This document shows, piece after piece, positions 14,101 through 41,879 of a stretch of 64,000 nucleotides of DNA. The DNA is from Planctomycetota bacterium (GTDB taxonomy: Bacteria; Planctomycetota; UBA1135; UBA2386), in NCBI GenBank assembly GCA_965223545.1, contig OZ245006.1:4736001-4800000 (forward strand). The letters run 5' to 3'. Under the pieces are notes generated by a model. That model worked only from the letters and a program-made list of their open reading frames with translations. It searched no databases and was not told the origin of the DNA. The stretch's first letter is position 1. Every line of letters begins with the position of its first letter. The position numbers were made by a program, and so were the translations under genes.

Positions 14101-14437
14101 TCAGCATCGCCGAGGCCTCGATCCCGGGGAGCAGCTCGACGTTGACCGCACCGCCGTTCTCGGCGGCCCGCGAGGTGATGCGCTTGACGCCGGTGAGTCC
14201 TTGGACCGCCTCCTCGATCCGCTGGCAGATCGAGTACTCGACCTCGTCCGGCGTGGCGCCGGGGTAGGCGACGGTGACGGCGATGGTTTGGGCGGCGATC
14301 TCCGGGAACACCTCCTTCTTGATGACCGGCAGCATCATCAAGCCGGAGACCACGATGAGCCACATCAACAGGTTGGCGGCGACGGTGTTGCGCGTGAACC
14401 ACGCGATCACACCGCGATGCTCGTTTGGCGTGGTCAT
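11192..14437 (-). CDS. RND efflux transporter permease (AcrB/AcrD/AcrF family)
   Basis: 1081 aa; N..AANLLM, YPGATP.EVE, GIVVDDAIVVGE, GVVVNDSLVLV, RFRPILLTSLTT motifs; two TM clusters. Confidence 0.95.
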   Translation of the reverse strand: MTTPNEHRGVIAWFTRNTVAANLLMWLIVVSGLMMLPVIKKEVFPEIAAQTIAVTVAYPGATPDEVEYSICQRIEEAVQGLTGVKRITSRAAENGGAVNVELLPGIEASAMLNDVKTRVDAIDTFPDESEKPIVQEVVLRRQVLNIAISGDLDERALKNVGQQVRDELARLPDITQVELVSVRPDEISIEVAEEALRRFGIGFDTVAAAVRRSSLDLPGGSLKTTGGEILLRTAGQARSREEFERIVVLRRPDGTTVELGAVATVTDGFADADTAARFDGEPAVMVQVYRVGDQSALDISGAARAYVATKQAELPDGVTLTPWRDETVILNSRIDLLVRNAATGLLLVFCVLALFLRFRLAFWVSLGIPISFLGAIALMPTFGVSINMVSLFAFILVLGIVVDDAIVVGESVFKQLRGGASGVEAAIRGSKLVALPVVFGVMTTVAAFTPLLDVDTNARDLWRHVPLIVIPCLAFSLIESKLILPAHLSHERADGEARPRRGIGRAFAVVGRAWGALQRPLSRGLESFVDRVYRPVLAVCLRWRYLTWSTGIGTLLITLTLVAGGWIRFDFFPAVEGDNVVASVVLPLGTPAADTRAVLRQLETAATTLGDDLEREHGAPVFRHVLTSIGEQPYQLDMARNAGVMADAQSGSHLGEINVQMVASEEREISAEEVQRRWRALAGDIVDRYEIAFTSTIVRAGPDIDVQLAAGDIATLRAAADRLKAALASYDGVVDIADSLRAGKPELRFELLPRADALGLTLSDVARQVRQGFYGEEAQRLQRGRDDIKVMVRYPADARRSVADLDDMRIRTATGDAVPLSTVARLRRDRGLSTITRTDLARTVNVTAAIDAQRANTNQIVAELQAHAIPALLAEFPDLTADFEGDASEQQRTLASLLRGAIVALIAIYALMAIPFRSYTQPLMVMAVIPFGLVGAIWGHVFMGMELSIVSMLGLVALTGVVVNDSLVLVDYVNQRRREGHGRVAAVHQAGAARFRPILLTSLTTFASLTPMLLERSVQAQFLMPMAVSLAFGVLFATLITLILVPSGYLILEDLRAGVRWLVRDPTNEQQRDRAPVAKAC

Positions 14438-17096: not shown

Positions 17097-17743
17097 CGGC
17101 CGGGCTCCGTTGCGGTCTTGGTCCGCACCGGCGCGCGAAACCCCGCCGCCAAGTAGGGCACCAGATGATCCAAGATCACCTCGGGATCGCGCGTGTCGCC
17201 GACCGAGTCGCCGAGTAGGCACAGTCGATGCACGTCCGCCAGGGTGTGACACATCACGCCGATCATGAAGTGGACCCGCCACGCCAGTGTTGCCGGCGGC
17301 AGCTGCGGGGTGGCGCGGGCCAGAGCGGCGAGCAAACGGTCGCGGACTTCCTCGAATTGCGAAACGACCGGTTGCCAGTGAGCACCGGGTTCTGTGTAAG
17401 TGCGGCCGGCGAGCCGCATGAAGGTCGGTCCGTCCGGGTCGCGCACCAACCGCAGCGCCGGCGCCAAGAACACCTCCAACACCTCCTCCAACGTCGGCTC
17501 GGTCTGGGCGCGCTCGAGTGCGTCGAGTCCCTCGATGCGGGCGCGATTGATCGGCGCGATCCGGCGCTCGAACACCGCCTGCCACAGCGCTTCCTTGGAG
17601 CCGAAGTGGTAGTGCACCGCGGCGAGGTTGGCCTCGGCGCGGGCGGTGATCGCGCGCAGGCTGGTGGCGGCGAAACCGTGATCGGCGAAGAGCGCTTCGG
17701 CGGCGTTGAGGATGCGTTCGCGGGTGTCCTGGGCAGGATTCAT
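17093..17743 (-). CDS. TetR family regulator, PsrA-like
   Basis: TRERILNAAEALFADHGFAATSLRAIT..A.ANLAAVHYHFGSKEAL HTH; first gene of the efflux operon with 4-bp overlaps. Confidence 0.92.
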   Translation of the reverse strand: MNPAQDTRERILNAAEALFADHGFAATSLRAITARAEANLAAVHYHFGSKEALWQAVFERRIAPINRARIEGLDALERAQTEPTLEEVLEVFLAPALRLVRDPDGPTFMRLAGRTYTEPGAHWQPVVSQFEEVRDRLLAALARATPQLPPATLAWRVHFMIGVMCHTLADVHRLCLLGDSVGDTRDPEVILDHLVPYLAAGFRAPVRTKTATEPGR

Positions 17744-20900: not shown

Positions 20901-21096
20901 CGGTGGAGTCGAGATCGACAGCTCTTGGGGCATGCCCGCCGAGCTGCAACAACGCGTCGATGCCAGCGGGCGCGTGCTGTTTCCGCACGTGCCCGCCGGC
21001 GCCCGGGTTCGCCTCGAGGGCGTCGACGCGGCCGGCAAATGGCGTGAGCACCACGTCGTCGTCGGTGCGCAGGGGTGGACCGCGGTGCAGTGGTGA
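17911..21096 (+). CDS. ECF sigma factor fused to a TM helix and multiple carboxypeptidase-regulatory-like (CnaB-type) domains
   Basis: Sigma2 (ADDLAQD...AWL.RV.RN), sigma4 (EPYRSAVLL.Y.EGL...EIA...R.RVSRGL); TM ALVAVAAAVSFAVLVWWW; repeated G.V.D..G.P / TD.DG.F domains. Confidence 0.88.
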   Translation: MASTAHSSTDVDLLLAQTDWLRRLAGRLVADAGAADDLAQDALVAALEHRPRTGGSAEQLRAWLGRVARNTARLQYRRLVRRRARERFTARPAAVSSTAEVVAHGAQLRAVLDAALALAEPYRSAVLLAYQEGLAAPEIAVRTGVTPAAARQRVSRGLARMRARLDAQHGGKRQRWARALAPVAVAGPARGALLGVSLMSTKALVAVAAAVSFAVLVWWWPERPAAGGMGSPVGVPDSGTLVAVEDLVDDAEETVDAPPRVRAAGSPAAGGAERPVRGRVVSSVTEFPVAGVEVVLPDSEELTARVGVAPLAVTAADGRFEVVLDDGETAGLLLQHDRHFDLHVDDVALNERGDGELVVRLTPLGTLAVRVVDAQRRPQPGVDVRYSIDLTVGSERQRWDWRRTLSAGQTDAEGAVAIDGLPVAMPIDVVAGGSWAGATLVVINPAVGHAEVEIVAPRWGRLVGRVQWPDGTPAEGVALSWHGGYTAEGNPGHATVGADGRFEFPALSQSRGVLLFDRGTASPVAAEVRAGEVTDVGVVEAARPVLVRGRVTADGAVPQRLAVLACRDGAVLAEAEVRGDRFALEVAPGPVLLMVTRGHWWDPTLPFQGQPLVSATVDAPAEGVELRLPAAGARLLATVDGIVDGTAVDVGVMAADPEQYWYGPRLLRSGAQVVTDAEVASPPVGAGEYRLYVRAGERSGYSAPVAVDSEDVDVGTVRLGTATVRGEVRDASGQPRIGLTLKLSGIDRDHRVAVTDDDGAFAFVDVESGPWQLGVEAGSTSHVEGRVLHLCAGDMVRLDLTSAPTATLAGAVVTAGDPSGVSVRLQRNGTNDIWSATTGADGRFSFGDLQPGSYRLWVRGGITLNVALRAGEVTDLRCPVGLELEDLELRDASGPRGDIDSLFVAEVPGAAGAPLLWHHAEQVDRGRWRVSLPAGRVLVQADVWGLGNNQLLLFDAVPRRDASVAVVRLPETGIALHTPGGARRLQAPPPAAYLVSLGGVEIDSSWGMPAELQQRVDASGRVLFPHVPAGARVRLEGVDAAGKWREHHVVVGAQGWTAVQW

Positions 21097-21142
21097 GCGG
21101 GCCGCGGTGGCTGCCGCCGGGCGAGTGCGGTAAATTGCCACG

Positions 21143-21724
21143 GTGCCCGCCCCCGAAGGAGAGATCACCGCGATCCTGAGCCGCATCCGCGAAGGAGATC
21201 GGGATGCGTTCCAGCAGCTGTTTCCCGTGGTCTACAGCGAGCTGCTGAGCATCGCCGCGGGCAAGGTGTCCGGGGAGCAGTTCGGCCACACACTGCAGCG
21301 CACCGCGTTGGTGCACGAGGCCTATCTCCGGCTCAGCCGGTGCAGGCACGGTTGGAACGACCGCACGCACTTCTTTCGCGTCGCCGCGGTGGCGATGCGC
21401 TCGGTGCTGGTCAACCACGCCCGCGATCGCAAGCGGCAGAAGCGGGGTGGCGGCGTGACTCATTTGCCCTGGCACGACGACGTCGCGCGGGTCGAGGCGA
21501 GGACGCTGGACCTATTGGGACTGGACGACGCTCTGCACCGGCTGCACGAGATCGATTCGCGTCAGGTGCAAGTGGTGGAGCTGCGCTTCTTCGCCGGGCT
21601 GACCGTGGACGAGACTGCCGAGGTGCTGGGTGTCTCGGCGCGCACGGTGCAGTCGGATTGGCGATTGGCGCGCGCCTGGCTGTTTCGCGAGCTCAACGGC
21701 GGCTCCTCGACGGAGATCGATTGA
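21143..21724 (+). CDS. ECF sigma factor, Rhodopirellula/Verrucomicrobium (kinase-associated) type
   Basis: GEIT.IL..IREGD..A..QLFP.VY.EL; HTLQRTALVHEAYLRL; AMR.VLV..AR.R...KRGG; VVELRFF.GLT..E.A..L.VS.RTV..DW..ARAWL. Confidence 0.92.
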   Translation: MPAPEGEITAILSRIREGDRDAFQQLFPVVYSELLSIAAGKVSGEQFGHTLQRTALVHEAYLRLSRCRHGWNDRTHFFRVAAVAMRSVLVNHARDRKRQKRGGGVTHLPWHDDVARVEARTLDLLGLDDALHRLHEIDSRQVQVVELRFFAGLTVDETAEVLGVSARTVQSDWRLARAWLFRELNGGSSTEID

Positions 21725-21729
21725 CGGCG

Positions 21730-24700
21730 ATGGATCGCGCGCGCTGGCTGGGCATCCGCGACCTGTACCACCGGGCTCTGGAGACGCCTGAGCCCGACCG
21801 CCTGGCCTGGCTGCGGCGTCAGGCCGTCGATGAGCGCCTGCGCCGTGAAGTCGAATCGCTGATCCAGGCGGACTTGCGGGCCGGGACGTTCCTCGAGCCT
21901 GTCTCGCTGCGCGGGCTCGGTGCCGCCGCTGGCGCCGCCTTTCCGGAGGTGTTGGCCGAGGGTGCGCGGGTCGGCAGCTATGAGATTCGCGGTGTCCTCG
22001 GGGCCGGCGGCATGGGAGTGGTCTACCTGGCCGAGCAACCCCATCCGCGCCGCTTGGTGGCGCTCAAGCTGATCCGGCCGGGCCTGGCCTCGCCGCGCAT
22101 GCTGCGGCGCTTCGAGCATGAGGCCGAGGTGCTCGGTCGGCTGCAGCACGCCGGGATCGGGCAGATCTTCGAGGCCGGCGTGCATCTGTCGGCCGGGCCG
22201 CACGGCGGCGAGGAAGTGGAGCAGCCGTTCTGCGCGATGGAGCACATCGAGGGCCCGGCGCTGACCCAGTACGCCATCCTCAACGAGCTCGACTTGGCTG
22301 CTCGCGCGCGGCTGTTCGTCCGCTTGTGCGAAGCCGTCGACCACGCGCACCGGCGCGGTGTGCTGCACCTCGACCTGAAGCCGAGCAACATCCTCGTCGT
22401 CGATGACGCACGCTATGGCGAACCGCAGCCCAAGGTGCTCGACTTCGGCGTGGCGCGCATCACGGACGCGCCGGACAAGGAGGTCGACGGCGGCTTCGTC
22501 GGCACGCCGGCCTACACCAGTCCCGAGCAGATCCCGCCCGTGGGTGTCGACCTGGACGCGCGCGCCGACGTTTTCAGTCTGGGGGTCGTGTTCCAGCAGC
22601 TGTGCTGCGGCAAGCTGCCGTACGAAGTCGCAGGGTTGTCGCCGGGCGAGATCTTCGCGTTGCGCCGGACCACGCCGGCGCGGCGGCTCCGGGCACTGGA
22701 CCCGCGCGCGCCGGCCGATCTCGATGCGATCGTGAGCAAGGCGCTGTCCATCGACCGCGACGCGCGCTACTCCAGCGCGCGCGAGCTCGCCGAAGACGTG
22801 CAGCGCTTTCTCGATCACCAGCCGGTCTTGTGTCGCGTCAACTCCTCCAGCTACCTGCTGCGCAAGCTGGTCGCCCGCCACCGCCTCGCAGCCGGGTTGG
22901 TGGCGCTCTTGCTGCTGGTGTTGGTCGGAGCGGTGGCCGTGATCCGTTGGCAGCGCGACGAGGCGCGTGTCGCTCGCGATGCCGCCGAGCAGGTCGCGGC
23001 GGTCATGGAGGGCGTGATCGTTGAGGTCGATCCGGACCGCGGCGGTAGCCGGCTGATGCGCAGCATGTTGGAGCGCAGCTCCGCTCTCCTCGATGGACGG
23101 CTGGACCAGTCGCCGGTGACGCGCGCCCGGTTGTTGGCGGCGATGGGCCGGGTGCACGGCAAGTTCCAGGAGTTCGATCGCGCCATCGCGCTGTACGAGG
23201 AGGCGGTTGCGCTCACCGACGCGGCATACGGCCGTGATCACTCGAGCATGGCGACAGTGCTGGCCGGCTTCGGGCAGGTGCTCGAGGCCGCCGGGCAGGA
23301 CGACGAAGCGGTCGCTCACCTGCGTGAAGCCCTGCGCATTCGGCGGACTCAGCTCGCGCCCGACGACCCATTGATCGCCGAGACCCACGCCAAGCTCGGG
23401 GCCGTTTATCACTACTCGGGTCAGGCCGACGCCGCAATCGAACAGCTGGAGGCGGCGTGCCGGGTCGCGCGGTCGCGGTTCGGCGACCAGTCCCCGGAGC
23501 ACGCGGAGCGAGAGGCTGATCTCGGCTTCTCGATGGTGATGAACGGCAGGCCGACGGAGGGGCTCGAGTTCCTGCAGCGCGCGCTGGTGGTGCAGCGGCG
23601 GACGGCCGGGCACGAGGAGAACATGCTGCGCACGATGCAGGGGGTGGCGCATGGGCTGCACGCCACCGGCCGCACGCGCGAGTGTGAGGAGGTGTTGGCC
23701 GAGCGGGCTGCGTTCGCCGAGGAGTTCTTCGATGTCGGCGATCCCCGTCTTGCCGGCATCCTACACGACTACGGCACGGTGTTGTCATGGCGCGACTTGG
23801 TCGCCGGCATTGCCGTGCTCGAGCGTGCCGTGCGGACGCGACGGCTGGCGTACGGCGATGGGCACCCCGAGGTCGCGCTCAGCCTGCAGAATCTGGCCGC
23901 GGCGGTGTCGAAGAGCGGCGACCACGCGCGCGCGGTGGAGCTGATGGAAAAGGCCGTGGAGTCACGCCGGGCCTTGGGTGAGTTGCGTTCGCTCAACGAC
24001 GCGCTGGTCAATCTCTCCCTCAACTACGTGCGCGCCGGGCGCCTCACCGACGCCGAGCGCACCGGCCGCGAGGCGCTCGAGAGTTTGCAGCGGGAGAGCC
24101 CGTTGCGGCCCGCGCGCATCGCGACCGCGCGCCAAAACTACGCCCAGGTGCTGATCGATAGCGGCGATCCTGCCGGTGCCGAACAGCAGCTGCGCGCCGC
24201 CCTCGAGGGCTATGACGAGGGCGACCACGCGCGGGGCGGAGTCATGAGTCTGCTGGCCGGATTGCGCCTGGCGGCGGGCGACTTCGGCGGATCGGTGGAG
24301 CTCTCCGACGCGGCCATCGAGATCTATCGCGCAGGGCAAGCGGATCCCTATGCGTTTGCGCACGTCCTGCTGGGCAGCGCGCGGGCGCGGATGGAGTCCG
24401 GTGACTTCGATACCGCGCGGGCGCACCTGGAGGAGGCGCAGCAGTTGGCCGAGAGTCTGGATCCGCGCGGAGCAGTAGTGGCCGCCGTGCTGCGCGCCCG
24501 CGCGCGGCTCGAGTGGGAGAGCGACGCCCCGCAGCGTGCGCGGGCGCTGCTCGCCGAAGTGGACCAGCTCGGCGTGGCCTCGCCCGCCGAGGGCTCGCTG
24601 GCGCAGGCCGACCTGCTGTTCTTGGCCGGCGCTCTGGCGCGCGCCGACGATCCCGACCTGGCGCTGGAGGCGCTGCAGTCGGCGCTGCGCATCTACGAGG

Positions 24701-24870
24701 ACGAGGCGCCGCGCGGGTGGCAGGTGGCGCGCGCCCGGCACGAGCTGTCGTACGTGCTGGTCGATCGCGGCGAGGTCGACGAGGGAGAGCAGCTGCGCCG
24801 TGCCGCGGCGGCCGAGCTGACGCGCATCTACGGCGCCGCGCACCGGTGGGGTGCCACCGATCGCCGGTAG
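21730..24870 (+). CDS. Hanks-type Ser/Thr protein kinase with TM helix and TPR-rich sensor
   Basis: LGAGGMGVVY, VALK, HLDLKPSN, DFG, GTPAY.SPEQ, D..SLGV; TM near residue 390; TPR_12-like repeats; 5 bp after the sigma stop. Confidence 0.93.
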   Translation: MDRARWLGIRDLYHRALETPEPDRLAWLRRQAVDERLRREVESLIQADLRAGTFLEPVSLRGLGAAAGAAFPEVLAEGARVGSYEIRGVLGAGGMGVVYLAEQPHPRRLVALKLIRPGLASPRMLRRFEHEAEVLGRLQHAGIGQIFEAGVHLSAGPHGGEEVEQPFCAMEHIEGPALTQYAILNELDLAARARLFVRLCEAVDHAHRRGVLHLDLKPSNILVVDDARYGEPQPKVLDFGVARITDAPDKEVDGGFVGTPAYTSPEQIPPVGVDLDARADVFSLGVVFQQLCCGKLPYEVAGLSPGEIFALRRTTPARRLRALDPRAPADLDAIVSKALSIDRDARYSSARELAEDVQRFLDHQPVLCRVNSSSYLLRKLVARHRLAAGLVALLLLVLVGAVAVIRWQRDEARVARDAAEQVAAVMEGVIVEVDPDRGGSRLMRSMLERSSALLDGRLDQSPVTRARLLAAMGRVHGKFQEFDRAIALYEEAVALTDAAYGRDHSSMATVLAGFGQVLEAAGQDDEAVAHLREALRIRRTQLAPDDPLIAETHAKLGAVYHYSGQADAAIEQLEAACRVARSRFGDQSPEHAEREADLGFSMVMNGRPTEGLEFLQRALVVQRRTAGHEENMLRTMQGVAHGLHATGRTRECEEVLAERAAFAEEFFDVGDPRLAGILHDYGTVLSWRDLVAGIAVLERAVRTRRLAYGDGHPEVALSLQNLAAAVSKSGDHARAVELMEKAVESRRALGELRSLNDALVNLSLNYVRAGRLTDAERTGREALESLQRESPLRPARIATARQNYAQVLIDSGDPAGAEQQLRAALEGYDEGDHARGGVMSLLAGLRLAAGDFGGSVELSDAAIEIYRAGQADPYAFAHVLLGSARARMESGDFDTARAHLEEAQQLAESLDPRGAVVAAVLRARARLEWESDAPQRARALLAEVDQLGVASPAEGSLAQADLLFLAGALARADDPDLALEALQSALRIYEDEAPRGWQVARARHELSYVLVDRGEVDEGEQLRRAAAAELTRIYGAAHRWGATDRR

Positions 24871-25143: not shown

Positions 25144-27921
25144 TCACTGCACCACCGCGCCCGCCTGGCCCCGCAGCTGGCCGTCGGCATCGATCCACGA
25201 GTTGAGCACGATGCCGGTGATCGGGTCGGTGAGGCGCTGGATCAAGGTCGCGCCGAGCGGACCCGCCATCGCCGGATTCTGCGCGCCGGTGCGCAACGCC
25301 GCGCCGCCACCGGGGGCCAACAACACGTGGTTGCTGGAGCCGGTCGACGCGCCGCTGCCGTCGACGATGCGGTCGAGGTTGTAGAACACTCTGGCGGGGT
25401 CCCAGATGGATGCCGGCGCGACGCCATTGCAGCCGGCGCGGTTGACGTTGTTGTCGAGCGGGTTGGTCGGACAGCCGTTCTGATCGAACAGGAACAGACC
25501 GCTGCCGAGTCCGGCGACCATGTGCACCCAGAGCGGCGAGTCGAGCTGGTTGCTCGGGTTTTGGCCGAAGTGCTGGCGCAGCTGGTTGAAGTCGAGGCTG
25601 CTGAAGTCGCCGTTTGCCATCGCGGTGCGGAACGCGTCGTAGGCGGCACCGTGCGTGGCGAGCGCGTTGTCGGTGAGGTGGCACGCGACGCAGTAGCGCG
25701 GGCCCTCGTCGGTGGCAGTCACGCGGCCGCGGATCGAGTGCGCCATCATCGCGTTGTGGCTGAGCGATGGGTGCCCGGTCGCGGGGTTGGCGCCGCCGCC
25801 GTTGCGATCGGAGAACGCCATCGTCCGGCTGCGGTTGCCGTTGAGATCTTCGTAGGTGAAGAACGTCTTGGTGTTGGCGCAGACCTGCTCGATCCGGTTG
25901 CGCGGCCCCACTCCGAGCTGGAAGAACACCGGCGACTGGTAGACGAAGTCCGCCTCGCGCTCGCGGAACACGATGCGCTGGCCGGTGATGTTGCTGAAGT
26001 TGTTGCCGGTGTCGTAGTCGCCCTCGAGGTGGCAGCCCATGCAGGTGTTGGTCCACGCCGAGTGGCACGACGCGCAGCTCATGGTGTCCGCGTGGCTGAA
26101 ACCCGACGCCGCGACGCCGTTTTGCAACGGTCCGATGCCGGTGTTGGGGTCGCCGTCGGCGCGTCCCATCGCGTAGCTGGCGCGCGGGCTGTAGACCGGC
26201 TGGTTGTCGAACGGATCGCGCACGCCACTGTCGACCACGGTGTCGCGGGTTTGCGGCACGAAGTGGCGACGTCCGGTCACACGGCTCGTCAGGTAGAAGT
26301 GGCCGTCGCTCTCGCGCACGACGTGCGGCAGGGGGTTGCCGGCGGTGTCGACCGCGACCTGCGCGGCGGCGCCGGCGTAGGTCGTGCCGGCGACCGTGCT
26401 GGCGTGGCTGTCGACGCTGCCGTGGCAGCTCTCGCAGGCGATCGCCACCGCCTGCTCCATGCGGCTCAGGATGCGGTCGCCGGCTGGGTCGCCGGGAACG
26501 CCGCCGTGCAGGTCGTGGGTCCCGTGGCAGTCGATGCAGCCCATGCCGGCCTCGGCGTGCACGTCCGGCGGCGTGTCGTCCCGGCCGTCACCGTCGTAGT
26601 CCTCGAACGCGATGTACTGATGGTGATTGCGGCCGTTGAAGGTGCGGTTGCCGACGGCCGGATCGAACAGCCGAGTGTCGTCGCGGGTGTTGACGAAGGA
26701 CTGCGGGTTGGCCGGGTACTGCACCCCGTTGCGCAGATCCTGGTTTTGATCGAGTCGAATGCCCCAGTACTGCATCACCGTGCGGTTGGAACCCTGGTGG
26801 CAGCCGGCGCAGGTGTGATCGTCGATGCCCTCGATGCGTTCGCCGTTGGGCAGATCGCGGCGCACGCTGGCGATGCGGTGGGCGCGCACGTGGCTCAGCT
26901 CGGGCGGATCGATGTCGTCCGGGTCCAGCGGCTCGTCCTTGGGCACGTTGGGATCGAGGCTGCGGCTGCGGCCATCCAGGCTGTACGGCATGTGGCACGC
27001 CGTGCAACCCGACGAGCGGAAGTCACCGTAGCGGTTGTTGGCGCCGGCGCTGCCGAGGTGGCAGTCGCCACAGGTGAACGCCACTTGCTCCTGGTAGACG
27101 TGCGCCAGCGGCGAGTCGAGCTGCACCGAGTTGTCGGGGTTGAGGTAGTTGTGCAGCAGCAGCGCGTCGTAGTTCTGATTGCGGAACATGCTGTTCGGCG
27201 CTTCGACACCGTGCACGCTGTGCACCGGATACTCGGCCAGCCGGCCGACGCGGCCGACCTCTGCCGGGGCGCTGGCAAACATGTCGTCCTGCACCGCCCG
27301 GAAGCCGAGATCGGCGGCGGTGTCGTGGTAGAGGCCGCGGTTCTCGGCAACCTGGTTCTCGATGCCTGCGGCGTAGGTGGCGCCGGACAGGACGCCGGCT
27401 TCGGTCGCCAACAGGCTGTGCGCGACGGCGTCCGAGTGCGGAGCGTGGCATTGTCCGCATCCGCGGTTGGCTTGAGTGACGCGCAGATCGCCGGGGTTGA
27501 CGAACTGCAGGTAGTCGAGGGCCGTGTAGGTGACCCCGTTCACCGTGTAGTCCGGGTACTTGTCGACGCCGGTCAGGGTGAGGCGGTTGAAGTAGGCCTC
27601 GCGGTCGGTGCGCCACTGCTCGCGGTCGCCGATCTCGGGCGGCGGCGGCACGTGGCTCTGCGCGCGGTCGGCGCCATTGGGGTTGCCGCCGTGACAGGTG
27701 GTGCACTGCAGCTGCTCCGCGCCGGGGAAGGGATGAGGATCCTCGAGCCCGGGGCCGGCGTAATCGTCGGCCTGCGAGCCGTTGTGGCACTGCATGCATG
27801 ACTGCGCACTGGCGGCAAACTGCACCCGGCCGTCGGTGTCGCCGCAGCCGGTGAGCAGCGCGCCGGCCAGCAGCAGCGCGAGCCGCCCGGCCGGCAAGAG
27901 ACCAGAATCGATGTGCGTCAT
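25144..27921 (-). CDS. 11-heme c-type cytochrome lipoprotein
   Basis: Lipobox LLTGC; 11 CxxCH motifs (CMQCH, CTTCH, CGQCH, CGDCH, CTACH, CAGCH, CIDCH, CESCH, CASCH, CMGCH, CVACH). Confidence 0.9.
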   Translation of the reverse strand: MTHIDSGLLPAGRLALLLAGALLTGCGDTDGRVQFAASAQSCMQCHNGSQADDYAGPGLEDPHPFPGAEQLQCTTCHGGNPNGADRAQSHVPPPPEIGDREQWRTDREAYFNRLTLTGVDKYPDYTVNGVTYTALDYLQFVNPGDLRVTQANRGCGQCHAPHSDAVAHSLLATEAGVLSGATYAAGIENQVAENRGLYHDTAADLGFRAVQDDMFASAPAEVGRVGRLAEYPVHSVHGVEAPNSMFRNQNYDALLLHNYLNPDNSVQLDSPLAHVYQEQVAFTCGDCHLGSAGANNRYGDFRSSGCTACHMPYSLDGRSRSLDPNVPKDEPLDPDDIDPPELSHVRAHRIASVRRDLPNGERIEGIDDHTCAGCHQGSNRTVMQYWGIRLDQNQDLRNGVQYPANPQSFVNTRDDTRLFDPAVGNRTFNGRNHHQYIAFEDYDGDGRDDTPPDVHAEAGMGCIDCHGTHDLHGGVPGDPAGDRILSRMEQAVAIACESCHGSVDSHASTVAGTTYAGAAAQVAVDTAGNPLPHVVRESDGHFYLTSRVTGRRHFVPQTRDTVVDSGVRDPFDNQPVYSPRASYAMGRADGDPNTGIGPLQNGVAASGFSHADTMSCASCHSAWTNTCMGCHLEGDYDTGNNFSNITGQRIVFREREADFVYQSPVFFQLGVGPRNRIEQVCANTKTFFTYEDLNGNRSRTMAFSDRNGGGANPATGHPSLSHNAMMAHSIRGRVTATDEGPRYCVACHLTDNALATHGAAYDAFRTAMANGDFSSLDFNQLRQHFGQNPSNQLDSPLWVHMVAGLGSGLFLFDQNGCPTNPLDNNVNRAGCNGVAPASIWDPARVFYNLDRIVDGSGASTGSSNHVLLAPGGGAALRTGAQNPAMAGPLGATLIQRLTDPITGIVLNSWIDADGQLRGQAGAVVQ

Positions 27922-28050
27922 GGTCGTCCTCGATCGAGACCGCGCCGGCGGGCGCAGTGTCGGAGAATTGGACAGATCTTCTTCGGCAAGCCGTGCGCCG
28001 CGCCTGTCCTCGCGCCCGCGCCGGGTCTCAGAGCGGGACCGCTCCAGTGT

Positions 28051-28719
28051 TCAGCGCACCCGAGCATGGCTCCAGCGGGTTTGAGGGTGGCAGCGATCGC
28101 ACCGCTGTACCCAGCCGAGCGGCACGTGCGGTGGGTTCTGCGTCGCGGCCGCGTCCAGCGCGTGGCAGGTCGAGCACTCGTGGTCGATCGGCTGGAAGTT
28201 GCCGACGAACGAGCCCGGGTGGCAGCGGTGGCAGGACACCGCCAGGTGGGCGCCGGTCAGCGGAAAGCGCGTGCGCGCGTGCAGCTCGATCTGCCCGGTG
28301 GGATGCCACGTTTGCTCGCCGTGGCAATCGGTGCAGGTCGGACCGAGATCGCCGGAGTGCACGTCCTCGTGGCATCCGGCGCAGCCGCGCGCGGCGAAGT
28401 CGGCCACCGGTCCGCGGTCGTTGTGACAGCGCAAGCACTGCGCCGTCGCATGCGCGCCGTGCAGCGCCACCCCGGTGTGCGCCTCGTGATCGAAGTCGAA
28501 GTCGTCGACCAGCTGGTGCCACGAATCGCCGACGTGGCACAGCGTGCAATCGCCGGGAAAGGTGTCGTGCGGTAGAACTGGCCCGAGGCCGCTCCACCAT
28601 CGATGCACCGCCGCGTCCGGTGTTCGCTGCACGGCGCAGGCGATGACCGTGTAGGCGATCGCCGCGGCGAGCATCGGCCAGCGCAGTCGGCGTCGAGGCG
28701 AGGGGTGGTTGTTGTGCAT
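28051..28719 (-). CDS. 7-heme c-type cytochrome (possible lipoprotein)
   Basis: Signal peptide ending VIAC; CTLCH, CLRCH, CAGCH, CTDCH, CHRCH, CSTCH, CDRCH; F.L.GAH module shared with the 23-heme protein. Confidence 0.88.
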   Translation of the reverse strand: MHNNHPSPRRRLRWPMLAAAIAYTVIACAVQRTPDAAVHRWWSGLGPVLPHDTFPGDCTLCHVGDSWHQLVDDFDFDHEAHTGVALHGAHATAQCLRCHNDRGPVADFAARGCAGCHEDVHSGDLGPTCTDCHGEQTWHPTGQIELHARTRFPLTGAHLAVSCHRCHPGSFVGNFQPIDHECSTCHALDAAATQNPPHVPLGWVQRCDRCHPQTRWSHARVR

Positions 28720-28730
28720 GGGTGCCTCGC

Positions 28731-30446
28731 TCAGAAGCTCCGGTCGACGTGGATGCCGACCGACCAAGAGGTGTCTTCGTCCCAGAACAAGGCCTGGGCC
28801 GACAGCGACAGCACCGCGCCGGCGGACAGCAAGAACGTGCGCGCGCAGTGCGCGCGGTGCTGGAACAAATCGTCGGCGTCGTCGTCGAAGCCGCGCAGAT
28901 GGTGGTGGGACAGCTCGTACAGCGCCTCCCACGAGCCGTTGTCGTCGTGCACGCCGTAGCGCACGCGGCTGCCGATCACCGACGAGAACTGTCCGGCGTT
29001 GCCGAAGACGGCCAGCTCCAGCCGACCCCGCTCGGACCACACGCCCTGTGCATCCACGCCGGTCTCGATCGCGGCGCCGTCGTCGTCCTCGTCGTCCCAA
29101 CCGCTGATGCTGAGCCGAACGCGACGGCCGGGCGAAGTGACGCGCCAACCGCTGAGCGTCAGCCGGTCATATCGATAGTCGCGCAGCTCGGGCGCGGTCG
29201 GCAGCGGCACGAACTCGACGCGCAGGATCTCGGGAAAGCGAACCCGCCGGTAGGTGGCGTCGATGCCGCTGCCGCTCTGCCAGCGGCGCGTCAGCGAGAC
29301 CAGCGCTTGGCTGATCTCGGGGCCACTCCCCTTGGTGTCGTCGCGGCCGTAGTAGAAGTCGACCCACGCGCTGGCGTGCGCCTGCCAGCCCTCGTCGGGC
29401 AGGTAGCGCGACTTGAGCACGACCAGGTCGCGGTCGGTCTTGCCGTGGTGCAGCGTCTTCTGGTACGCGGCCGCCGCCGTGAATCGCTCGCGCGTGTCCG
29501 CGGCCCATTGGTAGTAGATCGAGGCCTGCAGGTCGGCGAAGGAATCGAACTCGTCGTCGAGCTCGGGCAGGTAGCCGAAGCTGGCGCCGAACCGCTGGCC
29601 GTCGGCGCCGCGGTGGCTCACCTGGGCACCGTCGACGACCCCGAGCTCGGGGAGGTCGTCGTGCAAGAAGCGGCCCACCTGCCAGCGCGTCGGCTGAAAC
29701 CGGGTGCCGCCCCGGGCGTAGCTCAACCGGTGCGCCAGCAGGTCGAGGCCGTCGGTGTCGTCGTGCTCGGTCTTCGCCTCGAGCTCCGCGTCCAGGAACA
29801 GTGCGCCGCCGCGGCCGAACGGGTTCTCGATGTCGAACTCGACACCGGCCCGGGCGAAGCTGTTGTCGAACGAGTCGTAGCTGTTGTGATCGATCGCTCC
29901 CGCGAGAGCGACGCGGCCGCGCATCCGCCGCGGCCGCTCCGCCGGCCGCACCGGTCGCACCTGAGCCAGCAGCGGCATACCGGCCCGCCAGTCTGGGTCG
30001 CGGTTGGTCCAGCGCGGATCGCCGGCCTGCGGTGCATCGGGCGTGTCCGGAGCAGTGGGGGGCGGCGGGCGCGGGGTCGGGTCGTTGCGCGTGGGCGGCT
30101 GCGCCGACGGCGGGGGGGCGAGGCGCGAAGCCGGAATGCGTACCTGGCCGCGAGCCCCGACCGGCACGCGCGCGCCACTCTCGTGCAGCTCGACGATGGC
30201 GCTGCGCTCGGCCAGCTGGATCACCGTGCCGCGCAGCGTCGCACCGTCACGCGGCACGATCGTGATGATGTCGCCGTTCGCCAGCCCGTCGCGCTGGCCG
30301 CGGTCGATGATCACCTGGCCACCGGGTCGCGCCGCGGTGACGCGCAGCGCCAGCTCGTGCAGTGCGCCGGGCTGCTGCGCGCCGAGAACGGGGGCTGCCA
30401 GCGCGAGCAGCAGCAGACCGAGCCAGAGGTGAGCGGTGGGCGTCAT
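28731..30446 (-). CDS. Outer-membrane beta-barrel protein (putative porin of a porin-cytochrome complex)
   Basis: Signal MTPTAHLWLGLLLLALAAPVLGA; IDRG..DGL..GD N-domain, Pro-rich linker, amphipathic strands, C-terminal WSVGIHVDRSF (terminal Phe). Confidence 0.75.
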   Translation of the reverse strand: MTPTAHLWLGLLLLALAAPVLGAQQPGALHELALRVTAARPGGQVIIDRGQRDGLANGDIITIVPRDGATLRGTVIQLAERSAIVELHESGARVPVGARGQVRIPASRLAPPPSAQPPTRNDPTPRPPPPTAPDTPDAPQAGDPRWTNRDPDWRAGMPLLAQVRPVRPAERPRRMRGRVALAGAIDHNSYDSFDNSFARAGVEFDIENPFGRGGALFLDAELEAKTEHDDTDGLDLLAHRLSYARGGTRFQPTRWQVGRFLHDDLPELGVVDGAQVSHRGADGQRFGASFGYLPELDDEFDSFADLQASIYYQWAADTRERFTAAAAYQKTLHHGKTDRDLVVLKSRYLPDEGWQAHASAWVDFYYGRDDTKGSGPEISQALVSLTRRWQSGSGIDATYRRVRFPEILRVEFVPLPTAPELRDYRYDRLTLSGWRVTSPGRRVRLSISGWDDEDDDGAAIETGVDAQGVWSERGRLELAVFGNAGQFSSVIGSRVRYGVHDDNGSWEALYELSHHHLRGFDDDADDLFQHRAHCARTFLLSAGAVLSLSAQALFWDEDTSWSVGIHVDRSF

Positions 30447-32557
30447 GGTTGGCGGCGCCGCCGGCGGCGCAGTGGGTCGTAGTGCTCGCGGTGGCAGTCG
30501 GTGCACTGGTGCGCGATCGGTCGGTAGCGGATCACGCCGTCGTTGCCTTGTCCGTCGGCGAGGTGGCAGGCGGCGCAGTCCAGCGCGCGGTGCTGCGCGC
30601 CGAGCGCGAACGCGGCATCGCGTTCGTGGTCGAAGCGCGACGCCGCAAAGGCGGTGGCCGGGTCGTGGCAGCGCTGACAGTCGGTGCGACCGGCGGCGTC
30701 GTCGAACTGGCCGCCGTGCGGATCGGTGTGGCAGTCCGCACACGCCGTGCCCCGCGCGCGGTGCCAGGTGCGGCCGTGGGCGTCGGCCGGCACCATCGGC
30801 GCATGGCAGGTCGAGCACGCGGCCTGTGCGTGCGCACCGGTCAGGGCAAAGCCGGTCCACTGGCCGTGGTCGAAGCCATGTGGAAGCGCGCGGAACGAGC
30901 TGTCGGCGTGACACCGCGCGCAGTCCGCCCTGCCCTCGACGGTCGCCGGCAGGCCGGGTCCGTCGAAGCCGCCGCGGTGCGGGTCTCGATGGCAGCTGTG
31001 ACACCCCTCGAACGCGCCGAAGTGATCGGCGACCCGACCGAGCGTGCGGCCGCTGGCGTCCGGGGTCGCGCTGCGCGGGTGGCAGCTCTCGCAACCGGCC
31101 TGTTGGTGGGCACCGCCGACCGCGAAGCCGGTCCAGGCGCCGTGGTCGAAGCCTTCCCGCAGCGCGGGGTGCGCGAAGCCGTGCGTGGTGTGACAGTGCG
31201 CGCAGCGCCCGTGCGGCGGCCGGTCGATCGCCGCGTCGAACCGGTCGAACTGGCCGCCGTGCGCGTCGCGATGGCAGTCGGCGCAGCGCGTCGAGGTGCC
31301 GGCAAAGCGCCGCACGCCGTCGCCGTCCGCAGTGTGGCAGTCGGCGCAGGCGAGGTCCTGGTGGGCGCCGTCGAGCGGCAGCGCTGCGCCGGCGTGTCGT
31401 TCGCGGTCGAAGGCGGGCGGTGCAAAGTGGTCGCGGTCGTGGCACGCCCGGCAGTGCCGCCCGGCGTCGGCACCGGTCTGGAAGCGGCTGCCGGCGAACT
31501 GGCCGGCGTGCGGGTCCGCGTGGCAGCGGTGGCAGTCGTCAGCGGTCCGGCCCGGGTGCCGGGTGGCGAAGTCGGCGGCGTCGGGTGCATGGCACCGGGC
31601 GCAGTCGACGTCTTGGTGCGGTCCCGCCAGGGCAAAGCCGGTGGCCGCGTGTTGCGCCGGTGTGAGCCGCTCCGCCTCCCGCCAGTCGTGGTGCTCGTGC
31701 CGGTGGCAGTCGGCGCAGGCGTTGCCGGCCGGTCCGCCGTGCTGTGCAGCGGCGGCCTCGGCGAACGGCTGTGTGTGCGGTGAGGCGTGGCAGTCGTCGC
31801 AGCGGCGGGGCGTGCCGACGTTCTCGGCGCGTTCGAGCGCGTGTGCGCTGCCGGCCGCGTGGCAGGTGCGGCAGTCGAGGGCGGCGTGGGCGCCCGCCAA
31901 CCGCAGATGCCGGTCGTGGCCGGCCGCGCGGTGCTCGGTGAACGCGGCCTGCGTGTGGCAGGCCGCGCAGTCGCGGTGCATGCGGCCTTGGTGCGGGTCT
32001 TCGTGGCAGCTGGCGCAGGTCGCGTCGAGGCCGGTGTATCGCTGCGCGCCGGCCGGCAGCACGGCGGTGTCGGCGTGCGCGTGGCAGGCCGCGCACTCGA
32101 GCTCCTGGTGCGCGCCGCCCATGGCGAAGCCGACGCTGTGGTGGTCGAAGCCTTCGCGGCCGTCGAAGCCCGCGGCAACGAAGCTCTGCCGGTTGACGAG
32201 GGCGAAGGACGCGCCGTGGTGCTCGCTGTGGCAGCGCGCGCACGCCGCCGAGGCGGCCTGGCTCGAGCGGCCGTGCAGCCCCTCGCCGTCGACTCGCTGC
32301 GCTTCGATGTCGTCGTGGCACTGTAGGCAGGACTGCGTCATGTCGGAGAACCAGCCGCCGTGGCACTGCGCGCAGCTGCGGTCGCCGGCCAGGTCGGGGT
32401 GGGCGCCGTGTACGGTCGACAGCGTGCCGGGGGCGACGCGGTCGAGATCGCCGATCACCAGCGCGCCGACCGCGACCGCCGAGAGCACCGCGATGGCGAC
32501 GCCGGCGTGGCGCCGCAACCAGGGGTCGCTCGGCTGGCGGGGTCGTGCGCGGGTCAT
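30443..32557 (-). CDS. 23-heme c-type cytochrome with N-terminal membrane anchor/signal
   Basis: 23 CxxCH in 704 aa, arranged in tri-heme repeats FDH...GF.L.GAH...CxxCH...CxxCH.DPH.G.F...CxxCH. Confidence 0.92.
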   Translation of the reverse strand: MTRARPRQPSDPWLRRHAGVAIAVLSAVAVGALVIGDLDRVAPGTLSTVHGAHPDLAGDRSCAQCHGGWFSDMTQSCLQCHDDIEAQRVDGEGLHGRSSQAASAACARCHSEHHGASFALVNRQSFVAAGFDGREGFDHHSVGFAMGGAHQELECAACHAHADTAVLPAGAQRYTGLDATCASCHEDPHQGRMHRDCAACHTQAAFTEHRAAGHDRHLRLAGAHAALDCRTCHAAGSAHALERAENVGTPRRCDDCHASPHTQPFAEAAAAQHGGPAGNACADCHRHEHHDWREAERLTPAQHAATGFALAGPHQDVDCARCHAPDAADFATRHPGRTADDCHRCHADPHAGQFAGSRFQTGADAGRHCRACHDRDHFAPPAFDRERHAGAALPLDGAHQDLACADCHTADGDGVRRFAGTSTRCADCHRDAHGGQFDRFDAAIDRPPHGRCAHCHTTHGFAHPALREGFDHGAWTGFAVGGAHQQAGCESCHPRSATPDASGRTLGRVADHFGAFEGCHSCHRDPHRGGFDGPGLPATVEGRADCARCHADSSFRALPHGFDHGQWTGFALTGAHAQAACSTCHAPMVPADAHGRTWHRARGTACADCHTDPHGGQFDDAAGRTDCQRCHDPATAFAASRFDHERDAAFALGAQHRALDCAACHLADGQGNDGVIRYRPIAHQCTDCHREHYDPLRRRRRRQP

Positions 32558-34797
32558 CGCTCCGCTCCTGCGCCGAGCGGCGCCGCGGCGTCACCGGCGC
32601 CGTAGGCGAGCGCGTAGAACACGTGCACGGCGAGCAGCAGCAGCATCAGCACCGCGACCCAGCGGTGTAGCCAGCGCCAGGTCGACAGCAGCGCGCGCAC
32701 GTCCTCGAAGTGCGCTGCGGTCACTGCGAGGTGGTGCGCGCGGCGGGTCAGGTCGATGGTGCGCGCGATCTCGGGTGGGGCGACGCCGTGCTGGGTTCCC
32801 TCGTGTCGCAGTCCGCTGATCGTGCGGCGCAGCGAGCGCTGCGCGGTGAGCAGACCGAATGCCCGGCCGGCGAAGCCCGCCCGCCAGCGGTGGCGTTCGA
32901 CCGATTCCTCGACCGCCCGCCGCGCCGACCGGCGCAGGTCGACGGCGGCCGTGCTCCAGTCTTCGCTGCTGCTCTCGAGCTCCGCCTTGACCTCGTCCAG
33001 CCGCAGCTCGCGGCCGTTGGCGGCGCGCGGCAACCATGCGTAGAAGTAGCGGCCGATCGCGCCCGAGACGACAAGTGCGAGCAAGGCCCACAGCGCGTGG
33101 CCCCCGGGTGTGTCGCGCGGGGCCAGGGCGGCGTGCAGGACCGCGCACAGCAGCGCCAGCACGCCGGTGGCGACGTGGCTGGTCATCCACAAGCGCAGGC
33201 TGCCGAGGCGCAGGTGGAAGCGCTCGGTGCGCCGCGCCAGATAGGCCAGGTTGGTCGCGATCAGTGCGACCGCGGCGATGCCGAACGCGAGGCCCGCGCC
33301 GCGACCAGGCCGCAGCCACTCGTGAAGGTCGTGGGTCGGCCGTTCGGCGGTGGCCAAGCCATAGTAGTCGACGTGCCACAGCACCCACGCCGTGGCCAGC
33401 GCCAGCAGTGCTGCGGCCGTGATCGCCGCGTTGCGGATGCCGGCGCCGCGCGGTTGCGCCGCGGCGGGCGGCGGCCGCAGCTCCGGATTGCACGAGACCC
33501 CGGCGGCGGCGAGCAGCGCTGCCGGCGGCGTGCCGCCGAGCATCGCGAACACGCGGTGCACCGCCAGCCTGCCCCGCCGGATGCCCTCCGCCGTGCGCCG
33601 TTCGAGCTCGACGTGGTCCTCGGTGATGCCGCGGATCTCGGTGCTCATCAACAGCCGCAGCCGGCCGCGCTGCGCGAGGTCGTGCAGGCGCTGCTCGTTG
33701 GCGCGGCGCATGCGGTAGAAGTGCGGTTTGCGGTAGGCCAGGTGCACACGGTTGCCGGGTTGCTCGGCCAGCGCGATCGCGGTCTCCGCTGCGCTGTCGC
33801 CGCCACCGACCACCAGCAGCGCGCGGTCGCGCAAGGACTGCGCGTCGAGCAGGCCATAGGCCACCGACGAAGCGTCCTCGCCGGGCACGTCGAGCCGCGC
33901 CGGCGTGCCGCGGCGGCCGATCGCCAGGCAGACCGCGCGGGCGCGCACTTCGGCGGAGTTGCCGCGCACCCGCAGGCTGCCGTCGGCGTCGCGTTCGACC
34001 GCCTCGACGACCGCGTCGCAGCGCAGCGGCAGCTCGTGGCTGTCGACCAGCTCGCTCCACAGCGCGACCAGCTCCTCCTTCTCGTAGCTGCGCTGTGGCA
34101 GCCGCCCGTGCAGCGGCAGCGCCACCGACTCGGTGAGCACCAGCTTTTGGCGCGGGTACTTCGCCACCGTGCCGCCGGCGGCGCTCTCCTGCTCGAGCCA
34201 GACGAAGGACAGCCCGTGCGCACGGGCCTGCAGCGCGCACGCCAGCCCGGCCGGCCCCGCGCCGACGATGCACAGGTCGCGCAACCCGGCTTCGGCATTC
34301 CGTGCGCGGCGTGCGGCGACCCGGTCCGCCACCGCCGTGCCGTGCTCCACCGCGGTCTTGATCAGCGCGTGTGCGGTGACCTCACCGGCGAGGAACACGC
34401 CCGGCGCGGTTACCGACTCGAGCTCGTCGGTCAGCACCGGCACATCGTCGCGCTCGGCGAGATCCGCGATCGTCACGGTGATCGCGTCCACCGGACAGAC
34501 GCGTGCGCAGGCCGCCACACCGACGCACCGCGCGCCGTGGATCACCGCCGCCTGCCCGTGCACCATGCCGAGCACGTCGTCTTCGGGGCAGACCTCGACA
34601 CACTTGCCGCAGCCGAGGCAGCGGCTCAGATCGATGTGCGGCTGCTGCAGCCGCGCGGCCCGGTCCCCGGCGCGCGCCGCCGTCTCGCGCGCCCGCACCT
34701 GCCGCTGCATGCGCAGAAGCTCCCCCCGCCGCGACGCGGTCGCGAACAGGGAAAGCCCGAGGATGGTGATCGCGGTGAGGACGAAACCCCAGCTCAT
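32554..34797 (-). CDS. Fe-S ferredoxin / FAD-NAD(P)H oxidoreductase / ferric-reductase-like diheme-b membrane fusion
   Basis: CLGCGKCVEVCP and CVGVAACARVCP; IVGAGPAG (FAD); VVGGGDSA...YRK (NADPH); TM helices with two His pairs 14 residues apart. Confidence 0.88.
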   Translation of the reverse strand: MSWGFVLTAITILGLSLFATASRRGELLRMQRQVRARETAARAGDRAARLQQPHIDLSRCLGCGKCVEVCPEDDVLGMVHGQAAVIHGARCVGVAACARVCPVDAITVTIADLAERDDVPVLTDELESVTAPGVFLAGEVTAHALIKTAVEHGTAVADRVAARRARNAEAGLRDLCIVGAGPAGLACALQARAHGLSFVWLEQESAAGGTVAKYPRQKLVLTESVALPLHGRLPQRSYEKEELVALWSELVDSHELPLRCDAVVEAVERDADGSLRVRGNSAEVRARAVCLAIGRRGTPARLDVPGEDASSVAYGLLDAQSLRDRALLVVGGGDSAAETAIALAEQPGNRVHLAYRKPHFYRMRRANEQRLHDLAQRGRLRLLMSTEIRGITEDHVELERRTAEGIRRGRLAVHRVFAMLGGTPPAALLAAAGVSCNPELRPPPAAAQPRGAGIRNAAITAAALLALATAWVLWHVDYYGLATAERPTHDLHEWLRPGRGAGLAFGIAAVALIATNLAYLARRTERFHLRLGSLRLWMTSHVATGVLALLCAVLHAALAPRDTPGGHALWALLALVVSGAIGRYFYAWLPRAANGRELRLDEVKAELESSSEDWSTAAVDLRRSARRAVEESVERHRWRAGFAGRAFGLLTAQRSLRRTISGLRHEGTQHGVAPPEIARTIDLTRRAHHLAVTAAHFEDVRALLSTWRWLHRWVAVLMLLLLAVHVFYALAYGAGDAAAPLGAGAER

Positions 34798-41040: not shown

Positions 41041-41739
41041 CTATCGCGGCGGCGCGGCGACCGCGGGCTGCTCTTCCGCGTACGGCATCGCGGTCGAGTC
41101 CAAGTACGCCAGCGTGGCCTGCATCGAGGCGTCCAGCCGCCGGTGCAGCTCGCCGCTCTGTTGGCCGAGGGCGCGGACTTCGGGGTCCACGGTGGCGATC
41201 GCGGCGGCGTTGAAGTCGTTGCTCAGAAACAGCGTCACGTCGCGCATGCGCAGGTTGAGGGCGTCGAGCTCGGACTGGGCCGGCTCGACGGCGGCGAGGA
41301 TGCCGCGGTAGAGCGCTTGGGTGTGCTCGAGACGCGCCATGCTGCGCTGCCTCATCTGCGGGTTGGCGAACGACAACAGGTCGGCGCGCCAGCGCTCGAA
41401 CATCGGCTCGGCGGTGCGGCGCATCGTCGCGGTGCTGTCCCGCAGCTGTTCGCCCTGGGTGTTGGCCTCGGCCAGCGCCTGCTCGAGGCCGGAGAAGCTC
41501 TCCTTGGCATCGCCGGCGAAGGCGGGCGACACCAGGTTCTGCATCTGCGCCAGAGCGTGCTGAGCGGCTTGTTTGGCGAGCTCGAGGTCGACGTGCACGC
41601 GCTCGATGCGGGCGTGCACGTGCTCGAGGCTGGCCAGGCCATCGTCGCTTTGGAACATGCCGCAGGCGGCGAGGGCGGCGAGAGGAACGAGGCCGAGCGG
41701 CCGGCGAACGTGCGCGAACATCGGTGTGCTTGCAGTCAT
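41041..41739 (-). CDS. DUF2959-like alpha-helical lipoprotein
   Basis: Lipobox ALAAC; coiled coil with F..W..DL....NP.MR.RS..RL...Y..I and D..LFL.ND.N..AI motifs. Confidence 0.7.
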   Translation of the reverse strand: MTASTPMFAHVRRPLGLVPLAALAACGMFQSDDGLASLEHVHARIERVHVDLELAKQAAQHALAQMQNLVSPAFAGDAKESFSGLEQALAEANTQGEQLRDSTATMRRTAEPMFERWRADLLSFANPQMRQRSMARLEHTQALYRGILAAVEPAQSELDALNLRMRDVTLFLSNDFNAAAIATVDPEVRALGQQSGELHRRLDASMQATLAYLDSTAMPYAEEQPAVAAPPR

Positions 41740-41879
41740 GGACTCTCCGGTAGGCGAAGCGCCCGCCGGCTGTCCAACGCTTCGGCGATCGCGCGCGGCT
41801 GCTTGAGGGCGGCCTTTGGCCGCGGGCTCGGGCTGAGACTGCCGCACGTTTGTGTGGTGTCGCGGCCGCCTCCTCGCAG

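Follow-up and report, generated by a model that had tools for sequence, protein, structure and literature searches.

The porin-cytochrome conduits characterised so far are, to our knowledge, supplied from the quinone pool; the Mtr system of Shewanella is fed by quinol via CymA. For PCC3, a predicted porin-cytochrome c cluster (He et al. 2017, PMC5566968; Hoover et al. 2023, PMC9900912), the available text of He et al. had put forward a diheme cytochrome b as the inner-membrane protein. That text also mentions redox genes beside related membrane proteins, without naming them, and describes for subgroup II of the related cluster PCC4 an Fe-S gene upstream of the membrane protein, annotated with it as one gene in one genome. 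Here we analyze a 64-kb window (the whole stretch of DNA under study) from a Planctomycetota genome, in which five genes, G1 to G5, occupy positions 25144..34797 on the minus strand. The architecture of this cluster is that of the published PCC3, which an earlier, sequence-only reading of the DNA had missed; new is a ferredoxin and a permuted flavoprotein fused to the membrane protein. On balance, we consider it probable, if far from assured, that the genes encode an NADPH-driven outward electron wire, running from G1 to G2, on to G4 inside the barrel G3 and then to G5, and serving reductant delivery or disposal rather than respiration.

G1 (34797-32554) encodes 747 amino acids (aa), G2 (32557-30443) 704 aa with 23 CxxCH heme motifs, G3 (30446-28731) 571 aa, G4 (28719-28051) 222 aa with 7 motifs and G5 (27921-25144) 925 aa with 11; G1 and G3 contain none. 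The G1/G2 and G2/G3 junctions are ATGA overlaps, and gaps of 11 bp and 129 bp separate G3 from G4 and G4 from G5, exactly as the sequence-only reading had described. Its count of 41 motifs in five co-oriented genes was likewise confirmed (23 + 7 + 11). The expectation by chance in these proteins is a mean of 0.42 (maximum 3 in 1000 residue shuffles), and the rest of the window contains only 1 further CxxCH in six frames. The ATG start of G1 at 34797 is backed by the consensus opening of its homologues, MSW. Contigs from two DNA sequencing runs, which may include the source sample, were identical to the stretch over the longest listed pieces, which argues against an assembly artefact only. A promoter scan returned 0 sites, and terminator-like sites (4, versus 2.4 ± 1.7 in shuffles) were uninformative.

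The likeness to PCC3 comprises a barrel, a long periplasmic cytochrome with few residues per heme (23 hemes in G2, 21-27 in PCC3) and a second repeat cytochrome of variable length. The inner-membrane protein has five helices, the motif WX3HX13H twice and an SGXXG site. In addition, 22 strands are modelled for G3 and predicted for the Leptothrix PCC3 porin in the available part of the He et al. 2017 supplement.

Pfam and NCBIfam searches, an alignment, an AlphaFold2 model (predicted local distance difference test, pLDDT, 86) and fold searches indicate that G1 consists of an N-terminal membrane anchor, a ferredoxin, a permuted FAD/NADP(H) domain of the thioredoxin reductase (TrxR) type and a five-helix diheme-b domain. 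The alignment holds 109 near-full-length homologues of 120 listed; the 11 left out were mostly partial. Ferredoxin, flavoprotein and membrane domain form a single chain in all 109. Pfam matched a ferredoxin at residues 54-107 (34477..34638, minus strand), containing CxxCxxCxxxCP and CxxVxxCxxxCP, and a pyridine nucleotide-disulfide oxidoreductase at residues 174-439. In the second Fe-S motif, the place of the second Cys is never taken by Cys (0/109; His in 48, Ile in 35, Val in 22), and G1 thus does not qualify as a simple 2x[4Fe-4S] protein. Likely, its Fe-S centres are one [4Fe-4S] and one [3Fe-4S] cluster, His-ligated in many relatives.

For the flavoprotein domain (residues 116-440; 33478..34452, minus strand), the top fold match was Bdr/YpdA (Z 20.3, root-mean-square deviation (rmsd) 8.3, 263 aligned), with further matches to AhpF/TrxR and to the TrxR-type ferredoxin-NADP+ reductase (FNR) 3lzw (Z 18.2, rmsd 9.6, 250 aligned). 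A segment that is C-terminal in TrxR, FNR and Bdr aligns weakly to G1 residues ahead of the Rossmann fold, while a Sphingobium relative of the flavoprotein keeps the unpermuted order, which argues that the flavin domain of G1 is circularly permuted. The redox-active CxxC is present in 0/109 homologues, and an identity as thioredoxin reductase was therefore rejected. R356 and R362 are invariant in the 109 homologues; together with GGGDSA they form what we take to be an NADP-type motif, which suggests a preference for NADP. A second permuted flavoprotein of the G1 type is encoded elsewhere in the source genome (C1:498993-501512, plus strand), with a different membrane domain, C-terminal ferredoxin motifs and no multiheme neighbour. 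A similar protein (Fer4_5) lies amid glycosyltransferase genes in Pseudoalteromonas (L082:8896-11250).

The membrane domain of G1 (residues 450-737; 32587..33450, minus strand) carries the PCC3/PCC4-type motifs W537-H541-H555, S578GAIG and W707-H711-H725. WX3HX13H occurs twice in 109/109 homologues, with all four His invariant; the first residue of the SGXXG site is S in 7/109, as in G1, and T in 102/109. A profile of the domain compared with solved structures returned only non-significant stretches of cytochrome b6 (best E 0.043). The family mean of the net charge is +3.9 in the stretch that follows the anchor, +4.5 in loop 2-3 and ~0 in the alternate loops, and no Tat motif was found in the G1 family. 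From this positive-inside bias we infer that the flavin and Fe-S domains are cytoplasmic and that one His pair lies near each membrane face. The sequence-only reading had described G1 as an NADPH flavoprotein with a NOX-like diheme-b domain. A cytoplasmic NADP-type flavoprotein, a ferric-reductase-type domain with four invariant His and a NOX-like layout are all supported by our analysis, but membership in the NOX family is not, as the dehydrogenase of G1 is N-terminal and of the TrxR type. By the criteria in the available text of Hajjar 2017, the bis-His pairs in helices 3 and 5 are present (the invariant H541/H555 and H711/H725), whereas the C-terminal dehydrogenase with the FAD motif H(PSA)F[TS][LIMV] is not.

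An N-terminal hydrophobic helix and the lack of a lipobox are shared by G2 (30.6 aa per heme) and its homologues; G2 is likely an inner-membrane-anchored periplasmic wire. All 23 of its motifs recur in 62/63 complete homologues. It also has 25 conserved non-motif His, which would suffice for bis-His ligation. G4 is a 7-heme lipoprotein (Cys28), with the lipobox Cys in 63 of 70 homologue rows and 5 further rows gapped. Heme counts among its relatives are 7, 10, 13, 15, 16, 17, 19, 22, 24 and 40, with growth at the C-end. The 11-heme G5 also carries a lipobox (LTG-C26), so that the lipoprotein signals are present on both G4 and G5; it has 84 aa per heme and appears to be an optional terminal module. 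At least 14 conserved non-motif His would be enough for all of its hemes to be bis-His. Its best NCBIfam match is ExtM (NF040943), at 78 bits versus a cut-off of 800; ExtM membership was rejected on this score and on neighbours unlike the extHIJKLMNOPQS cluster. No sequence relatives of G2, G4 or G5 were found among solved structures. The cytochromes can be matured, because the genome carries CcsA and ResB (C1:703-705 kb, both above cut-off).

G3 consists of a signal peptide, a small N-terminal beta domain, a Pro-rich linker and a predicted 22-strand outer-membrane barrel ending in Phe; in the model the barrel spans residues 174-570 (mean pLDDT 88). No Pfam or NCBIfam family matched G3. The fold matches are generic outer-membrane barrels, with MtrB as one of many (Z 12.6, rmsd 8.1, 347 aligned). 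Model and fold matches thus agree with the sequence-only reading in placing a beta-barrel in the middle of the cluster. A complex model of G3 with G4 scored 0.84, versus 0.00 for the best of 3 controls. The mark for this score is reached by 116/157 solved complexes and 2/215 mismatched pairs, counts that hold roughly here, since our own alignments were used. The G3-G4 runs share at least 62% of contacts, with a partner pLDDT of at least 73. The best pairs join G4 residue 101 to the barrel turn 248-249, and G4 148-159 to G3 459-490 and 553. Strands in such barrels are counted by the rule that both termini are periplasmic. By this count, residue 101 sits at a periplasmic turn and 148-159 at the outer strand ends, so G4 would run with its N-end in and its C-end out. 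The modelled contact supports, but does not establish, a threading of the G3 barrel by G4.

We next consider conservation. The related loci are the best 80 of 112 confirmed barrel loci; they were obtained with an alignment query, a single-sequence scan of genome contigs with the barrel having produced 115 pattern matches, 0 of them confirmed. Their titles are mostly Planctomycetota or families within this phylum, some only 'bacterium', in line with the planctomycete origin presumed earlier. One locus titled Paracoccaceae (L080) is probably mislabelled, since its genome and that of the window yield the same phylum sample. Where the upstream DNA of a barrel locus is long enough, G1 and G2 are found without exception (55/55); G4 is present in 70/70 and G5 in 57/58, and all five genes occur together in 44 of the 45 full-flank loci, as expected for a co-conserved unit. 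The barrel was found in 16/21 related genomes, source genome included, and the membrane domain in 53/301 genomes of the phylum. The proposal that gene order mirrors the electron path did not hold: relatives carry the same genes in other orders, and the order is therefore no evidence of a path. In one locus (L006:5600-8052) the G1 homologue is split over four frames, probably by sequencing frameshifts. Homologues of ccsA lie within the flanks of L005, L041, L042, L043, L045, L046, L056, L059, L063, L072 and L094.

Flavoprotein and membrane domain are also observed as neighbouring proteins. We examined split loci (18 of 32 intermediate-score matches to the membrane domain, chosen for score and flank) along with 2 of 30 fused ones. 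In all 18 split planctomycete clusters, membrane protein and ferredoxin-flavoprotein are in separate frames, and G2-type (17-26 hemes) and G4-type cytochromes are present. A barrel match was obtained in 16 of the 18. G5 accompanies 5 of 6 loci with a ten-heme G4 and 0 of 14 with 13-24 hemes. When these genomes were searched throughout, G5 turned up in 14/28, in all but one of them beside a cluster. Thus, the long G4 wire and the 11-heme G5 cap look like alternative outer ends, although the counts carry limited weight because the genomes are kin. Stand-alone membrane proteins were also sought with a word-based search, most of whose matches were pieces of fused ones, and a search of a 1.84-billion library gave 2597 matches at E<=0.001.

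The split form also occurs in a cultured member of the Bacteroidota, Emticicia oligotrophica DSM 17448, on plasmid pEMTOL02 (NC_018749.1, L081:15300-23996), in the order ccsA, membrane protein, flavoprotein, 23-heme, 40-heme and barrel homologue. Its membrane domain is 24% identical to that of G1 (E 5e-16), and the barrel similarity is weak (E 1e-5 pairwise, 5e-14 by profile). The 40-heme cytochrome has no lipobox. Near this cluster are a divergent ECF sigma factor, Rieske, YceI and DUF5777 genes and glycoside hydrolases. When 72,556 plasmid records were searched with G2, a single one matched, and no PCC3 of Proteobacteria came up. On plasmid pMSHV of Sphingobium herbicidovorans (L083:9031-14206), genes for an 825-aa protein with cyclic nucleoside monophosphate (cNMP), flavin and Fe-S domains, a 296-aa membrane protein with both WX3HX13H motifs and a 599-aa cytochrome c3-family protein form a cluster that is homologous to both G1 domains and possibly cNMP-regulated. 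No barrel homologue was detected at that locus.

In the reading that we favour, cytoplasmic NADPH would reduce FAD, and electrons would pass over two Fe-S clusters to two predicted b hemes, all within G1. The b hemes would reduce the 23-heme G2, spanning the periplasm; G2 would pass electrons to the 7-heme G4 inside the G3 barrel, across the outer membrane, and G4 to the 11-heme G5, likely the surface terminal, for transfer to an acceptor such as Fe(III), humic quinones or O2. We infer the hand-offs from G1 to G2, G2 to G4 and G4 to G5 as well as the direction of flow. The quinone pool would be bypassed by direct NADPH input. Outward electron transfer over the inner membrane drains the inside-negative potential, as in NOX, and the wire alone would for this reason not conserve energy. 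Outward flow would be favoured because the potential of NADPH is low and the membrane potential pulls the same way. The wire would hence either supply the outside with low-potential reductant or relieve the cell of surplus NADPH. In its working it would resemble both PCC3 and a NOX with a wire attached.

Several points weigh against this reading. All Pfam matches of the G1 membrane domain (ferric reductase/b561, at the C-end) are sub-threshold, and the fold-search rows of G1 cover residues 166-443 only, that is, not the membrane domain. The G3-G4 score may in part be owed to a resemblance to the solved MtrAB complex. A barrel match is absent in 2/18 split loci, G4 and G5 are separated by inserts of 1.3-7.9 kb in 9 loci, and G5 is on a separate contig in one genome (G080). 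Moreover, the genomes are kin, so that the locus counts are not independent. Finally, the membrane domain may hold a quinone site.

This last point leads to the alternative that survives best, which we nonetheless regard as unlikely: a quinone-linked wire as in the PCC3 model, in which the diheme-b domain exchanges electrons with quinone, electrons from the flavoprotein enter from the side (as in an NADPH:quinone reductase) and the whole serves ordinary anaerobic extracellular respiration. The available text of He et al. 2017 (PMC5566968) models this motif class as a quinone-active cytochrome b, and the part of the CL21 preprint available describes the PCC3 clusters of Sideroxydans as comprising four genes, none for a flavoprotein. 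Proton translocation, too, could probably be coupled to export only by a quinone-linked route. However, the flavoprotein is fused in one lineage and adjacent in 18/18 split loci and in Emticicia, and a His pair on each membrane side suits transmembrane transfer. The genome also already holds a NapC/NirT-family gene between two MtrC/OmcA-like decahemes.

It is more improbable still that the chain ends within the envelope, with G5 as a periplasm-facing enzyme or the hemes as an electron store, and with a barrel that admits a small substrate, e.g. sulfur or selenium species. The low heme density of G5 would fit such a role, as would its resemblance to ExtM: the Geobacter ext cluster is linked to selenite/tellurite and sulfur reduction in the available text of the MccSep preprint and Jahan 2018. 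A lipobox alone, moreover, is no proof of surface location. Against this, G4 fills the barrel lumen in the complex model, its relatives reach 40 hemes at the modelled outer end while G2-type cytochromes stay at 17-26, and the non-motif His of G5 suffice for all-bis-His hemes.

TrxR-type FNRs are able to run toward NADP+ reduction, which counts for flow in the opposite direction. That an external donor (Fe(II), minerals or partner cells) reduces NADP+ via the wire is nevertheless the least probable of the alternatives, despite the occurrence of PCC3 in iron oxidizers in the available texts of PMC5566968 and PMC9900912: NADP+ reduction would be uphill from most external donors and against the membrane potential, in an operon without a coupling subunit, and the likely [3Fe-4S] cluster would fit, if weakly, a downhill outward chain.

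Beyond the NADPH-driven outward wire itself, a wider reading may be drawn, which we offer tentatively and think rather doubtful as a whole. A bacterial NOX analogue of independent origin, with a permuted TrxR-type FNR as its starting material, would power a modular nanowire, and a lipoprotein cytochrome would thread the 22-strand barrel with its N-end in and its C-end out. This cytochrome would either be extended, through three-heme repeats, up to 40 hemes or carry the 11-heme protein as a cap. Oxygen-respiring heterotrophs would thereby spend NADPH and membrane potential on outside chemistry, and the PCC3/PCC4 membrane-protein class at large would be pyridine-nucleotide-linked, not quinone-linked.

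A flavoprotein fused to a PCC3-type membrane subunit provides a concrete, testable input for a predicted cluster known since 2017. If the NADPH-fed wire is real, oxygen-respiring heterotrophs would possess a non-respiratory form of extracellular electron transfer, and it would be wrong to take PCC3-like clusters by default as markers of iron oxidation. Because a cultured type strain, E. oligotrophica DSM 17448, carries the split form (on pEMTOL02), the test is a practical one, and a one-gene module from NADPH to the periplasm could serve bioelectrochemistry.

Elsewhere in the source genome, four COX1-family genes are present. A NapC/NirT-family pentaheme gene lies between those for two MtrC/OmcA-like decahemes (below cut-off), along with one for a 13-heme protein (C1:6212296-6223464); this is a separate, likely quinol-fed cluster. 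At C1:201560-205608 (minus strand), a gene for an 18-heme MtrA/DmsE-like cytochrome (179 bits versus a cut-off of 192) is followed by one for a large protein, probably a barrel, that contains 3 CxxCH and has no MtrB_PioB match. The COX1, decaheme/NapC and 18-heme genes fit a cell with other means of respiration.

Upstream of G1 in the window, a DUF2959 lipoprotein gene was identified by Pfam at 41041..41847 (minus strand). In 45 of 53 loci it directly precedes G1 and is the usual first gene of the operon; here it lies ~6 kb away, with unrelated kelch-like, Reg_prop, RCC1-repeat and RbfA-like genes between. The window further contains genes for an RND efflux system (11192-17585, minus strand; AcrB-family pump, HlyD-family adaptor and outer-membrane efflux protein), an ECF sigma factor in one chain with carboxypeptidase-regulatory-like domains and a TPR-bearing Ser/Thr kinase (17911-24870, plus strand), a short frame reading by eye like a second ECF sigma factor (21143-21724), a 2085-aa frame with no Pfam family (41880-48137, minus strand) and a single-module type I polyketide synthase (KS-AT-KR-ACP; 49175-53806, plus strand).

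Compared with Shewanella MtrCAB, the locus shares a cytochrome modelled in a barrel and capped by a lipoprotein cytochrome. Membership in MtrCAB/MtoAB/PioAB was rejected: G3 has no MtrB_PioB match, G2 scores 47 bits on TIGR03508 versus a cut-off of 192, and PF11854 (MtrB_PioB) was not found in the source genome (91% complete). The 22 strands of G3 are another difference. In the NOX/ferric reductase family (SpNOX, MsrQ with Fre; PMC5676040), too, an NAD(P)H-flavin domain is coupled to a transmembrane diheme b, whose bis-His pairs lie in helices 3 and 5. In contrast to NOX, the dehydrogenase of G1 is permuted and equipped with Fe-S relays, and the membrane part has five helices plus an anchor, with a multiheme wire as the likely partner. 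TrxR-type FNR and Bdr (YpdA) share with G1 the fold, the lack of CxxC and basic NADP residues, but G1 is permuted, membrane-anchored and fused to ferredoxin and cytochrome b, and scores 113 bits versus the YpdA cut-off of 340.

Among clusters with the same membrane motifs, PCC4 also has neighbouring redox genes, but its three periplasmic cytochromes have 4, 5 and 10 hemes, versus 23, 7 and 11 motifs here, on which ground PCC4 membership was rejected; PCC4 is also modelled with quinone. The Sphingobium plasmid cluster matches, by size only, entries among the porin-less clusters of He et al. 2017 Supplementary Table 6, and an Ignavibacterium album trio in the available part of Garber 2024 Supplement 1 (532, 421 and 542 aa; two matches to the hidden Markov model DFE_0449) resembles the split form, again by size only. 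We found no description of an NAD(P)H input of such clusters in the available texts of He 2017, Hoover 2023, the CL21 preprint, Jahan 2018, the MccSep preprint, PMC11976967, the peat preprint, Arbour 2020, PMC5317091, Hajjar 2017, Zhang 2013 and Garber 2024, although supplements and subscription papers may bear on novelty.

The cluster differs from PCC3 itself by its ferredoxin-flavoprotein, which is part of the membrane protein here but is absent from the listed components of PCC3. PCC3 comprises four genes with a stand-alone membrane protein of ~300 aa, versus five or six genes with a 747-aa fusion here (stand-alone in the split relatives). The extracellular cytochrome of PCC3 has a median of 34 hemes (10-35 in Gallionellaceae), whereas G4 has only 7 (relatives 10-40), carries a lipobox and is modelled inside the barrel. 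An extra 11-heme lipoprotein, the DUF2959 gene and the occurrence in Planctomycetota further set the cluster apart. We therefore file it as a variant of PCC3, not a member, because the four-gene, stand-alone form does not apply; the likeness to PCC3 considered here is one of features.

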